Shown piece after piece: positions 6,526 through 25,778 of a DNA stretch of 64,000 nucleotides. The first letter of the stretch is position 1; each line of letters begins with the position of its first letter. The stretch is from Octopus vulgaris (Eukaryota), in assembly GCA_951406725.2 (NCBI GenBank), contig OX597834.1, forward strand, positions 32,922,001 to 32,986,000. Reading direction: 5' to 3'. The notes under the pieces are model-generated. The model ran no database searches and was not told the origin of the DNA. It saw only the letters and a list, made by a program, of their open reading frames with translations. The translations under genes were made by a program, and so were the position numbers.

Positions 6526-6565
6526 AAACGATGAATAGCTAACGCCGAAACCAATTGGTTCGTTT
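6526..6565 (+). ncRNA. Minimal type I hammerhead fold, A3-U8 core variant
   Basis: AAACG-AUGAAUA-GCUAACGCC-GAAA-CCAAUUGG-UU-CGUUU: 5-bp stem I and palindromic stem III, located in the PLE 3' end. Confidence 0.6.
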
Positions 6566-7026
6566 CAGTCTCTTACCTTATTATTAACTTCTTATAATCA
6601 TCAATAATAATGACCTTTTTGACTAGTAATACTCTAAATGTATATATTTGTCACTACCTGTCATAAATAGCCTTTTTATATCTACAATATGCATTTTCGT
6701 TGATTTTTCATATTTTACCCCTATATATATATATATATATATATATATATATATATATATATATATATGTATATATATATGTGTATATACATACATTTAT
6801 GTATACGCACTCACACACATACACACACACACGCACATACACACACACACACACACACACACACACACACACACATATATATATATATACATATATTTAC
6901 TCACAAGAGTAAAAAGAGAGACACAGGCAGAAACAAAGAAAATGCCCCTTGTATTTGAATACTATGAAAATATTTTTTTTAAAATCTTTTCATTTAATTT
7001 TTCCAAAATTTAATTGTTTTCTATAC

Positions 7027-7066
7027 TTAGAATTGAAAAAGTCTCAATGACTGAAACCGGTACTGA
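7027..7066 (+). ncRNA. Minimal hammerhead fold, U3-A8 core variant
   Basis: UUAG-aa-UUGAAAA-AGUC-UCAAU-GACU-GAAA-CCGG-UA-CUGA. Confidence 0.45.
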
Positions 7067-8239
7067 AATGTTTTTATTAAATTATCTTAGCATTTTCTAC
7101 CTTGTCTTATTTTCCTTATACATATCAACTCATGTGTTCCTTTTCAACCTTCTACATACGTATGCATGTATGTATGTCTGTATATATATATATATATATA
7201 TATATATATATATATATATATATATATATATATATATATATATATATATATGTATGTATGTATATATATATATGTGTGTGTATACACACACATACATATA
7301 TGTGCACGTATGTATGTGCATATGTATAGACACACACATATATGAACATAAAGAGTGATATTGTATGACAAAACAGCTGTGCGTTGTACATACATACATA
7401 TATATATGCGTGTGTGTGTATATATATATATACATACATATATATATATATATATATGTGTGTGTGTGTGTGTGTATGTATGAATGCGCGTGAAAGACAG
7501 ACGGGCCGGGGTAGGAGTGGCGGTTGTGAGTTCAGGTCAAGAGACGAGTGTGGGGCGAAGAAAGGAATTTTATCTTCAAGATCCAGAAACTTCCACGTTT
7601 CTGGAGAAGAGGTAATATCAGATGTATGTGCACCCAGGATGAAAGATATTCAACACACACACACACACCCTAACACGTACACACACACACACACACACAG
7701 ACACACACACACACACACACACTAACACACGCACACACATGCACTAACACGTACACACACACGTGCAAGCATATTGTAGCCATGAACAGAAACACGGAGA
7801 TACACACAAACACGTGTGTGTATATATGTGTGTGTGTATGTATGTATGTATGTATATATGTATATACATATATATATATACGCATGTATATGTATATGTA
7901 TATAAATATATATATATATATAAGGTAAGAGAGAGAAGAGTCTTTGACATACATACATACATACATACATACATACATACATACACGCACACGCATACAC
8001 AGATATCCATATATTGAAACGTAGTCGTTTATTTATACACTCGTACAAGAAAAGAGCTTTTATCACTTCTACATACAATGACAATGTCCTCCCACCTACT
8101 CCAGCCCCTTAATTTCGTTTGTTTTTTTTTTTTTTTTTTTTTGGTGAGTTGGGATGGATGTCATTCTGAAGGGAGGAACCGCACCCAGGCCCTCCAGTGA
8201 TCCTCCAGTACTTCGTCAACATTTCTTTTGTCCCGTTTC

Positions 8240-9001
8240 CAACATCCTCAAACGACCGTTATTCAGTGACCTTTTGAACAGGATGGGCTACTCAACCTGA
8301 AGAAAATTCTAACCCGTTGCACTGCCAAAGTATTTTTAACGTTTGTTGTAAACGACCGAGGTTGTTTAGAAAGGTTTAGCCAACCCTTGTTTCATACGTT
8401 CTGAATAAGAAATGTAACGGTTTCTTTTCATAAGTCCAAAGTTGGGAATGTGTATTACATGAGATGCTTGGAAGCCAGGGAAATATATTCCCTGTATTAT
8501 ATGTGATAAACGGGATAGGCTAAATTGGGAATGTGTATGATATATGACGCATGGAAGCCAGGAAAATATGTTCTGGATATCAAATGTGATAAACAGGACG
8601 GGCAAAATTGAAAACGCGTATCATATGTGATGCATGGACACCCGGGAAATATGTTCTGGATATCATATGTGATACAGAGGACAAGTAAAGAAAGGTTTAC
8701 ACAATGAGAAACTGACAGGTACTCGAAAGACATGCGTATGGAGGGAATACAGAAAGAACCGCATGCTATCAAAGTGACACTGGGGTACAAATATACGAAG
8801 CCCAATATAACCATCATAACTACCCGTCTGTTAAGGGTACACCAGGCACATGTATCACAACCATACGTACGTGACATGGTGATTTCATATCAAGAAAAAA
8901 AGCGCATGAACTTGCAGGTGGAGCCTAGTTAGAATTTTCTTCAGGTTGAGTATCCCACCCTGTTCAAAAGGTCACTGAATAAGGGTCGCTTGAGGATGTT
9001 G
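8240..9001. repeat. 74-bp inverted repeat pair (8240-8313 / 8928-9001)
   Basis: The arms are reverse complements with 4 mismatches. The right arm lies in a longer unclassified element (about 8760-9520). Confidence 0.85.
8440..8683. repeat. 83-bp minisatellite, 3 diverged copies
   Basis: TTGGGAATGTGTA-like unit starts at 8442, 8525 and 8608. Confidence 0.85.
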
Positions 9002-9155
9002 AATGAAACACCCATGTTTCTAGAGGTGAGTTATTCAAACCCCAAATAATTCCTCTCAACACATGGCTATGGTGATCCCCCACTACTTCTGCTCGTGATC
9101 AGAGATGCACATATTGTGAGCCACTAATGGACATGCTCAACTGGTTATGGTCAAA

Positions 9156-9389
9156 AAGGCGGCGAGCTGGCAGAAACGTTAGCACGCCGGGCGAAATGCT
9201 TTGCGGTATTGCGTCTGCCGTTACGTTCTGAGTTCAAATTCCACCGAGGTCGACTTTGCCTTTCATCCTTTCGGGGTCGATAAATTAAAGTACCAGTTAC
9301 GCACTGGGGTCGATGTAATCGACTTAATACCTATGTCTGTCCTTGTTTGTCCCCTCTATGTTTAGCCCCTTGTGGGTAATAAAGAAATA
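9156..9389 (+). mobile_element. Full-length SINE family B (Meta-domain-like) with a 13-bp TSD
   Basis: GGCGGCGAGCTGGCAGAA head, GAGTTCAAATTCC B box and GCCTTTCATCCTTTCGGGGTCGATAAA central block. TSD GGTTATGGTCAAA at 9143-9155 and 9390-9402. The domain name is recalled, not searched. Confidence 0.9.
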
Positions 9390-23055: not shown

Positions 23056-23324
23056 AATTCACATTTGGAACTTGAGAAAAGTCTTGCATATTTTTACTGT
23101 TCCACTCACAGATTGCACTTGTAATGTACGAATCAGCCAGTATACATACATGTGTATGTTTGTACGTATGTATATAGGTATGTATGTATGTATGTGTGCG
23201 TGTATGTATGTATGTATGTATGTATGTATGAATGTATATATGTGTGTATGTATGTATGTATGTGCGTGTATTAGTATGTGTGTGCATGCATGTGAATGTA
23301 TATAATTTATCAATTGCTTTTATC

Positions 23325-23722
23325 TTTTACTTGTTTCAGTCGTTAGACTGCGGCCATGCTGGGGCACCACCTTCAAGAACTTTTACTCAAACGTATCAAA
23401 CCCAGTACTTATATTTTTTAAAGCCTGGTATTCATTCTGTCGGTCGCTTTAGCCGAAATACTAAGGTATAGGGACATAAACACACCAACACCGGTTGTCA
23501 AGTGGTGGTGGTGGTAGTGGGGACAAACACAGACCCAAAGACACATACACATACATATATACATACATATATATATACGACGGGCTTCCTGTTTCCATTT
23601 ACTAAATCCACTCACAGGGCTTTGGTCGGATCGAGGCTATAGTAGAAGGCAGTTGTCCAAAGTGCCAAGCGGTGGGACTGAACCTGGAACCATGTGGTTG
23701 GGAAACAAATTTGTTACCACAA
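23325..23722 (-). mobile_element. SINE family A
   Basis: Both halves match 790-1246. Confidence 0.85.
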
Positions 23723-24699
23723 CGCCAGATAGACAAATGGGTATATAGATAGATAGATAGATAGATAGATAGATAGATAGATAGATAGATAGATAGATAG
23801 ATAGATAGATAGATAGATAGATTGATAGATAGATAGACAGACAGATAGATAGATAGATAGATAGATAGATAGATAGATAGATAGATAGATAGATAGATAG
23901 ATAGATAGATGGATGGATTGATAGGTGGATAAATAGATAGAAGGATTCTCTGCGCGTGTGTGTGTGTGTGTGATATCGTGCGTACGGTTATAATGTATCA
24001 GATATGTTGTGTACTGTGACATGTGCTACGTTCATACAATATGGCTGGACATGTGATAAGATGGATTGCAATATCGTACAGGATAACTTACCTTGGCAAC
24101 ATCCAGCTAAGTGACAACAACAACAACAACAACAACAACAACAACAACAACAACAACAACAACAACAACAACAACAACAACAACAACAACAGCAGCAACC
24201 AAAAGAAATAACATTAAAAGGAAGTACGAACAAGCTTTCCCTTCTGTTATTGTTATCATTGTGATATCAATCAACATCGTCATCAACGTCATCATCATCA
24301 TTGCTGTCGTCACCGTCGTCGTCGTGGTCGTCTTCGCCGCCATCATCAACCAGCGCTCTCTTTTGCTTCTGTCTCTGTCTGTCTGTCTGTCTTTGTCTGT
24401 TTGTTTGTCTCTCTCTCCCTCCCTCCCCCTCTCTCTGTTCTATCTCTCTGTCTCTCACACTCCCCTCCCCCTCTCTCTGTTCTCTCTCTCTCTCCTTCCC
24501 TCCTCTCTCCCTCCTCTGTCTCCAACCACCACCAGCAACTAAGCCACAGAAATTATTTCTATAAGAATAAAGCATCACACACACACACACACACTCTCTC
24601 TCTCTCTCTCTCTCTCTCTCTCTCTCTCTCTCTCTCTCTCTCTGTATCTATCTATCTATCTACCTCACTACATGTATATATTCTTTTATGCTTTTATTC

Positions 24700-25086
24700 T
24701 TTTATGTGTTTCAGTCGTTTGACTGCGGCCATGCTGGAGCACCGCCTTTAGTCGAACAAATCGAAACCAGTACTTATTCCTTGTAAGCCTAGCACATATT
24801 CTATCGGTCCTATTTTGCCGAACCGCTAACTTATGGGGACGTAAACACACCACCATCGGTCGTCAAGCGATAGCGGGGAACAAACACAGTCACACACACA
24901 CACACACACACACACACACACACACACACACACATATGACGGGCTTCTTTCAGTTTCCGTCTTCCAATTCCACTCACAAGGCTTTGGTAAGCCCGAGGCT
25001 ATTGTAGAAGACACTTGCCCAAAGTGCCACGCTGTGGGACTGAACCCGGAACTATGTGGTTGGTGAGCAAGCTAGTTACCGCACAG
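24700..25086 (-). mobile_element. SINE family A
   Basis: Both halves match 790-1246. Confidence 0.88.
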
Positions 25087-25232
25087 TAGATGCTTGCTAT
25101 AGGGTTCAAATACCTGACGGTAAACTTTCCACCCCGATACCGTCGGTATCTACATATCAAATTTGAGCGTAATCGGATGGAGGATGCCCGAGATCCTAGA
25201 AGACACACACACACAGACAGAACGGATGTTAT
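25087..25232. mobile_element. HINE/Helitron-like fragment
   Basis: CATATCAAATTTGAGCGTAATCGG...ACAGACAGA..TTATATA end motif. Confidence 0.5.
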
Positions 25233-25483
25233 ATATATATATATATATATATATATATATATATATATATATATATATATATATATATATATATATATAC
25301 ATATACATATATACATATATATAAAGTATATATAAAAATACAAAATGGGACAAGAACACAAAACACTCAAAGAGACGACACAAAGAGCGGACGGGTCATT
25401 CGAAGCCTCTAATCTTCAGTCAAGAACCGGATCATATATATATATATATATATATATATATATATATATATATATATATATAT

Positions 25484-25778
25484 AAAGGAAATGAAGAAAA
25501 TGCTGACAAAATAATTTAAGTAAGGGAGAGTGTATTTAATTAGGTGAAAGTTCTTTTTACCGGTTGCGCATTTGTTATGCTTATCAAAATATATTTTTTA
25601 AAGAGAGATAGAGTTCCTTTCTAAGAGAAAAAATCTATCAGAAAGGAACTCTATCTCTCTTAAAAAAATATCTTTTGATAAGCATAACAAATGCGCAACC
25701 GGTAAAAAGAACTTTCACCTAATTAAATACACTCTCCCTTACTTAAATTATTTTGTCAGCATTTTCTACATTTCCTTT
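25484..25778. repeat. Fold-back with ~139-bp arms and a 17-bp spacer; hammerhead-like U3-A8 motif in each arm
   Basis: Arms at 25484-25622 and 25640-25778. UUGAUAA-GCAU-AACAA-AUGC-GCAA-CCGG-UA lies at 25675-25704. Confidence 0.9.

Follow-up and report, generated by a model that had tools for sequence, protein, structure and literature searches.

Minimal hammerhead folds with family-specific Watson-Crick pairs at core positions 3 and 8 in Penelope-like elements of Octopus vulgaris

The DNA considered here is a stretch of 64,000 nucleotides from Octopus vulgaris (OX597834.1 of assembly GCA_951406725.2, positions 32,922,001-32,986,000 of the forward strand), referred to as the window and used for all coordinates below. 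It contains copies of six repeat families with minimal type I hammerhead folds, in which core positions 3 and 8 form a Watson-Crick pair that is the majority state of the family and differs between families. Four families (B, C, D, and E) are linked to reverse transcriptase (RT)/GIY-YIG genes of Penelope-like elements (PLEs), and positions 3 and 8 covary across families. The folds appear to stand at PLE 3' ends, and selection on master elements for self-cleavage probably maintains their family-specific 3-8 pair.

Families are named by their cores in the window: A at 16958 (and again at 16551, minus strand), B at 22941 (minus-strand copy at 22904), C at 6531, D at 7033, E at 25675 (minus-strand copy at 25587), and F at 28675. 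A first-pass annotation of this DNA had reported five cores with all four Watson-Crick 3-8 pairs; all five lie where it placed them (AUGAAUA at 6531, UUGAAAA at 7033, CUGAUGA at 16958, GUGAACA at 22941, and UUGAUAA at 25675), and each pair proves to be its family's majority state. The sixth family, F, with U3-A8, lies outside the span covered by that annotation and had been overlooked. The copies in the window are as follows.

6526..6565, plus strand: family C hammerhead, A3-U8; stem I of 5 bp, stem II of 2 bp, palindrome of 8 nt; cut predicted after 6560
6899..7177, plus strand: end of a family D element; U3-A8 core at 7033-7039, GAAA at 7053, H17 at 7062; closing pair of stem I privately broken
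16411..16628, minus strand: family A copy; C3-G8 hammerhead at 16556-16511
16669..17061, plus strand: family A copy with tRNA-like head; C3-G8 hammerhead at 16953-16999; predicted cut after 16994
22720..22924, minus strand: inverted family B copy; G3-C8 hammerhead at 22911-22861
22919..23055, plus strand: family B copy; G3-C8 hammerhead at 22934-22984, stem I of 7 bp, stem II of 5 bp; predicted cut after 22977
25433..25628, minus strand: inverted family E copy; core at 25587-25581
25622..25868, plus strand: family E copy; hammerhead-like U3-A8 fold at 25673-25706, GCAA at 25695, 2 bp of stem I in register
28622..28806, plus strand: family F copy; U3-A8 hammerhead at 28672-28708

The window copies of families A, B, C, and F follow the descriptor order of stem I, 7-nt core, stem II, GAAA, palindrome, UH, and stem I. 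Those at 7033 (D) and 25675 (E) fail every descriptor used; family D passes in copies outside the window, and family E does not. With positions 3, 7, and 8 left free, a looser descriptor finds six matches in the window, each with complementary bases at 3 and 8; the reversed window yields no match. The 6531 copy has a private two-base change before the GAAA, beside the core and not at 3 or 8 (the family C form of this strand is G-N-AAA, where N is A, U, C, or G); because of its private changes, an exact pattern drawn from it retrieved only itself genome-wide. In the 7033 copy the closing pair of stem I is an A.C mismatch private to that copy, which leaves core positions 3 and 8 unaffected.

The variant cores are majority states of their families and not private mutations. 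The genome (2.8 Gb in about 30 large chromosomes, with dense TA/TATG microsatellites that also dominated a repeat search of the window) was searched with family-specific exact patterns in which positions 3, 7, and 8 were free, and the matching rows were counted by eye; match totals are lower bounds and cannot be compared between families as copy numbers, since the patterns differ in length. The reversed-pattern control gave no match in any family search. C3-G8 occurs in 91 of the 100 family A matches listed (of 7,740), with position 7 variable, and G3-C8 in 96 of the 100 family B matches listed (of 3,452), the remainder being two G.U, one C.C, and one A.C. Position 3 is A in all 50 matches of family C, paired as A3-U8 in 42 and mismatched as A3.C8 in eight. 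U3-A8 is found in 51 of 54 family D matches, in 99 of the 100 listed for family E (of 974), and in 91 of the 100 listed for family F (of 2,073), where two others are U.U. Watson-Crick pairs thus make up 84-99% of the listed copies in each of the six families, the exception being the A3.C8 subfamily of family C. Copies collected by homology give the same majorities (A 43/46, B 120/122, C 33/40, D 62/64, E 62/62, and F 30/33). The literal CUGANGA core belongs to family A only, and families B-F carry variants of it; the possibility that the families have CUGANGA consensus cores altered by private mutation in these copies is contradicted by the tallies, and the private changes at 6531 and 7033 lie beside the core.

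The rest of the fold is similarly constant. U4, G5, A6, and A9, which the first-pass annotation had described as fixed, are, together with G12, A15.1-U16.1, and H17, the letters of the majority in each of the six families when copies are collected by homology; at these sites no minor letter reaches 10% in families B-F, and family A shows CpG decay. G12-A13-A14 is intact in A, B, D, and F, family C has a one-base insertion, and family E has GCAA. The part of stem I adjoining the core measures 5 bp in A, 7 in B, 5 in C, 3 in F, 2-3 in D depending on the subfamily, and 2 in E. In family C any of A, U, C, and G can follow G12 while the remainder is constant, in keeping with a bulge on the GAAA strand and five base pairs in stem I; an alternative register, with G at position 3 plus an insertion and a cut after C, was rejected on this pattern. 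In family B, differences shared by at least 10% of copies fall in loop II and the flanks, with none in the stems or core (122 copies, a sample partly pre-selected for intact stem letters). At 22941-22947 no variant reaches 5% in contigs of four sequencing runs under four organism labels, and the variants present in the stems are mostly of CpG type. One family D locus (L269; labels of this form denote loci) has swapped A-U for G-C at the base of stem II.

Covariation was also assessed on arbitrary stretches of the genome without regard to family (0.8 Mb in the first runs and 1.0 Mb in the final strict run), and then on all 1.98 Mb of sequence pooled. A strict descriptor on 0.8 Mb gave no match in reversed DNA and ten in the sequence as read, nine of them complementary at 3-8. 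The final strict descriptor, with 3 and 8 free and with thresholds chosen after the 0.8-Mb strict and loose runs had been seen, gave 18 matches in 1.0 Mb, all 18 complementary (seven G-C, seven U-A, and four C-G), and again none in reversed DNA; positions 3 and 7, an equally free control pair, are complementary in only two of the same 18. Non-complementary combinations are therefore rare, not equally frequent, and the expectation that searches built on CUGANGA would miss the variants is confirmed by 14 of the 18 matches not being C3-G8. In the pooled sequence all nine multi-copy clusters have a complementary majority, with a permutation p of 0.0009 that is too generous, since six of these clusters were deliberately sought and the families are related to one another; six of seven singletons are complementary, and the weak singletons L196 (G-C) and L105 (A.G) are possible chance matches. 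A3-U8 has no occurrence in the 1.0-Mb sample; the evidence for it comes from a single family of low copy number. Beyond the six, at least nine more families bear hammerheads, most with U3-A8 and several with an extra base before GAAA (L216:2138-, L254:2549-, L243:7016+, L231:9368+, L010:678-, L168:461-, L045:1982-, L365:8306+, and L172:1790-).

An association with PLEs is borne out for families B, C, D, and E, in which GIY-YIG genes lie upstream in sense; no such link was found for A and F, for which 43 and 28 upstream stretches, respectively, contained no consistent PLE gene, apart from one weak match in family F (L288). In the window, the family C element is represented by two features upstream of and around its hammerhead.

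5633..6349, plus strand: GIY-YIG stop-to-stop frame of 239 aa, the 3' gene end of a 5'-truncated family C Penelope-like element (Pfam PF01541, 27.4 bits, cut-off 22.6; homology to long copy L353)
5653-6805, plus strand: family C element homology (long copy L353)

The GIY-YIG frame ends 177 nt before the window motif, and the interval is 140-215 nt in most long copies of family C; an RT lies further upstream (RVT_1, 28.2 bits, just below the cut-off of 29.6). In a few long copies of families D and E the GIY-YIG gene lies about 640-675 nt and about 840-900 nt upstream, respectively, and both genes are about 50% identical to that of family C. The carrier of family B came to light through a GIY-YIG stretch met by chance in L202, with 41 matches at 98-100% identity, which mark a young element. 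Its G3-C8 motif lies 0.92-1.1 kb downstream of the RT/GIY-YIG gene in 30 of 30 loci and is identical in 29. In five of the 30 loci the frame stays open for 654 codons or more (655 in one) and encodes a YVDD motif, the Cys linker, and a GIY-YIG domain. Pfam support for family B is thin (GIY-YIG 22.9 bits against a cut-off of 22.6, and a scan of a 487-aa frame gave no Pfam match); the family B and family C RTs are 27% identical over 148 aa (E 7e-9). From its sequence this element is probably still mobile. A CX2-5CXXC linker before GIY-YIG, the trait that defines Neptune/Nematis-type PLEs (10.1101/2021.04.23.441226), is present in the B, C, and E proteins.

The young family B element (loci L322-L351) also has near-identical copies on many chromosomes and a 1-kb microsatellite-rich 3' region.

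The copies are arranged as PLE insertions are. Upstream inverted hammerheads accompany 42 of 86 copies in family B, 18 of 35 in A, and 6 of 27 in F, and the window has the pairs 22904/22941 and 25587/25675; copies are 5'-truncated with an inverted partner and inserted at microsatellites, and this inverted-partner arrangement is the usual form of PLE insertions (10.1101/2021.04.23.441226). Copies in the window and at the sampled loci are solo or inverted, with no tandem head-to-tail arrays, so they lack the arrangement of non-LTR (long terminal repeat) retrozymes. Family A is likely a short non-autonomous element, a short interspersed element (SINE) using a PLE 3' end. Its head (16735-16875) presumably resembles tRNA A and B boxes; ARAGORN found no tRNA in it. 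The layout of family A is a tRNA-like head, an (AAT)n tract, and a hammerhead end, occurring in inverted pairs.

Most family B copies begin 15-20 nt before stem I (22919-22933 in the window), and family F copies have a similar start. Longer family B copies (L325, L202, and L059) have a branch-point-like motif, a pyrimidine tract, and AG at this place, like a 3' splice site. The start of the B copies fits an intron ending beside stem I, as described for D. virilis Penelope (PMC4209133).

Relatives of the family B protein show other pairs behind comparable genes. Eleven metagenome loci encode such relatives, at 33-53% identity (best-segment range 33-49%), and in three of them the descriptor finds a motif 105-135 nt beyond the matched gene, with C3-G8 in L384 and L388 and U3-A8 in L383. 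A fourth, L386, found by eye behind its PLE gene about 100-150 nt after position 4868, has C3-G8 and reads U15.1-A16.1 instead of A-U. In L365 and L144, which represent a family that is sister to C and shares its 2-bp stem II, the pair is U3-A8.

In the mechanism that we propose, the element RNA would fold stems I and II, with position 8 pairing to 3 as in the active hammerhead, and would be cut after H17 with the assistance of a dimer partner or a protein. A second molecule would probably supply the weak stem III in families C and D; for B and F it is likelier that the protein encoded by the element takes this part as a chaperone. Cleavage by dimers through a palindromic stem III had been cited in the first-pass annotation as a proposal for PLE hammerheads. 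The predicted stem III self-duplexes are strong for C (-13.0 kcal/mol) and for D and E (-8.3); those of A (-1.7), B (-0.2), and F (+2.2) are negligible, and because the palindromes of B and F consist of A and U only, the dimer model is weak for these two. Inverted partners lie on the opposite strand and so cannot pair as a cis dimer. Master elements would be under selection to keep any 3-8 pair, and scattered copies likely decay freely. Cleavage would likely serve RNA processing rather than the insertion step, because the copies in the genome extend past the cut site in both directions. The constraint would be loose enough for mismatched or decayed masters to spread for a while, perhaps in trans.

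Several observations weigh against selection for self-cleavage. The timing of the final thresholds, the generous p, and the partial pre-selection of the family B sample, all given above, reduce the weight of those results; a loose descriptor on 0.8 Mb gave 26 matches, only 19 complementary, and three in reversed DNA. Seven of the 100 family F matches listed are C3.A8. In a tree built without position 8, the A3.C8 copies of family C group in a single nested clade (support 93/94; 6 of 25 rows), so one mismatched master made at least eight copies, and in most sampled copies of family D stem I is only 2 bp long, in a sample biased by the search pattern used. Seven of the 11 relatives of family B are without an intact motif, several at loci that end within 30-500 nt. 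Hammerhead cleavage is also dispensable for insertion in vitro (PMC11167929). Family E, finally, is young and abundant despite its GCAA and a slipped stem I: among the 100 matches listed the strand reads GCAA in 96, GUAA in four, and GAAA in none, so the GCAA of the window is the family state, and in 37 of 43 distinct copies a run of five A leaves 2 bp of stem I in register (the L250 pair has a run of three and a 4-bp stem). Substitutions of A13 impair hammerhead cleavage, and family E has probably decayed, or cuts very slowly, in an element that is still spreading; it is not counted among the minimal hammerhead ribozymes (min-HHRs) because of its GAAA strand and stem I. The claim that the variants are selected rather than decayed is partly supported, by the family majorities and covariation, and is not supported for family E, with its fixed A13C and 2-bp stem I, or for the A3.C8 subfamily. 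The U3-A8 cases had been considered the weaker ones; the GCAA and short stem I of E are family states, and at 7033 the break in the closing pair is private to the copy.

The strongest alternative, which we regard as much less likely than self-cleavage, is a conserved RNA structure that does not cut, such as an element for PLE protein binding or folding, or for splicing, in which the 3-8 pair is kept for structure and cleavage in vivo is negligible. Minimal PLE hammerheads cleave weakly in vitro and only as multimers, the monomers not at all (PMC4209133); Anolis RNA-seq has no reads starting or ending at the cut site, and the uncut RNA is the insertion substrate (PMC11167929). Octopus genomic copies span the cut site, and family B copies start at an apparent 3' splice site. 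Against this stand the membership of the 3-8 pair in the catalytically active fold, the retention of the catalytic G12 and the UH site in all families, and the Anolis PLE hammerhead, which does cleave with protein (PMC11167929).

That the folds are relics, once-active hammerheads that drifted in masters no longer needing them, with complementarity inherited or accidental, is improbable overall and likely holds for family E only. Family E and the A3.C8 subfamily have spread despite their defects, and PLE clades without hammerheads proliferate well (10.1101/2021.04.23.441226), as relics would predict; yet a swap takes two changes that fit each other, one PLE lineage has G-C, U-A, and C-G in the same location and sister families have A-U and U-A, all 18 matches of the final strict run are complementary at 3-8 against two at 3-7, and the youngest family B subfamily has perfect stems and an altered loop. 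That the motifs resemble hammerheads by chance in AT-rich repeats, or come from CUGANGA families through private mutation, might be suggested by the poor single-strand folding of eight stretches (z -0.69 to -2.27, with stems I and II in register only in the 22941 copy), by the lack of a hammerhead family among the 150 Rfam matches listed for the window (of 436, mostly microsatellite hairpin matches) and in rescans of 16780-17060 and 22905-23060, and by the two window copies with private changes near the core, but this reading is already refuted by the family tallies and the untargeted scan, to which the empty reversed DNA and the fixed position behind PLE genes can be added.

As judged from their anatomy, families A-D and F fit the PLE min-HHR of Cervera and De la Pena 2014 (PMC4209133) as variants: they share the type I form, the tiny palindromic stem III, G10.1-C11.1, the extra base after A9 (in A, B, and F), the pseudo-LTR place behind RT/GIY-YIG, and the many solo and inverted copies. 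That study found min-HHRs with U3-A8 in Schistosoma (about 1,300 matches), and the 56 representatives in its Fig. S3 have CUGA cores except for two with U3-A8 and one with U3.G8, and include no G3-C8, A3-U8, or cephalopod sequence; unlike that set, families C and E also alter the GAAA strand (G-N-AAA and GCAA). Natural U3-A8 covariation and a tolerated U13a insertion in the GAAA strand, which resembles the variable base of family C, are described by Perreault et al. 2011 (PMC3088659), whose hammerheads are mostly microbial or phage rather than high-copy retrotransposons and for which, in the text available, only U3-A8 is named at 3-8. G8C lowers the hammerhead rate 100,000-fold and C3G partly restores it (PMC8495972). 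The PAc hammerhead of Anolis Poseidon (Frangieh et al. 2024, PMC11167929) is likewise a PLE minimal hammerhead, which cleaves only with the PLE protein; C3G or G8C alone kills it and both together partly rescue it, so that G3-C8 is an engineered state there and the natural state of a young element here. The hammerheads of Lunse, Weinberg and Breaker 2017, as related in PMC6765202, are PLE-associated, with a short palindromic stem III and dimer cleavage.

PLE minimal hammerheads, natural U3-A8, and the laboratory C3G/G8C rescue are therefore already published. In the literature searched, in which subscription journals were thinly covered, no report of a natural family-wide G3-C8 or A3-U8 was found, G3-C8 appearing only as an engineered pair; the available parts of PMC6155905, PMC2920678, PMC12192606, PMC10085705, and PMC6962438 contain nothing on either as a natural pair, and those of a bioRxiv retrozyme preprint are uninformative on core variants. 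Priority as the first natural example of G3-C8 or A3-U8 is not established. A genome search by Seehafer et al. in 2011 reportedly allowed any Watson-Crick pair at 3-8 and listed predicted matches.

The 3-8 pair is known from structures and from swaps made in the laboratory, and the natural evidence in the literature covered is for C-G and U-A only; G-C and A-U at the level of families complete the covariation and provide comparative evidence that tiny PLE hammerheads reach the active fold. The genome also offers natural controls, namely the A.C subfamily, the GCAA family, and the young intact G3-C8 element, which make the need of PLEs for hammerhead cleavage directly testable. CUGANGA descriptors undercount ribozymes in such genomes. 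Tentatively, and with more doubt than confidence, we suggest that natural, high-copy, active hammerheads with each of the four 3-8 pairs may coexist in one animal genome, among them the first G3-C8 (in a currently mobile PLE) and the first A3-U8 to characterize whole families; non-CUGANGA cores could then be a large uncounted share of PLE ribozymes, and family E would add an active A13C core.

Other repeats in the window include a tandem array with a 34-nt period at 54663-55978 and a head-to-tail duplication of about 186 nt with 98% identity at 27708-28077. A minus-strand fragment at 58264-58354 matches the L353 sequence 310-400 nt downstream of the family C motif. Another short repeat, matching the flank of the family D reference, is present in many copies, at 848-794, 1229-1116, 5603-5490, 23721-23608, and 25083-24970, and further along at 26843-26726, 36761-36683, 47467-47579, 49099-48987, and 63714-63827.

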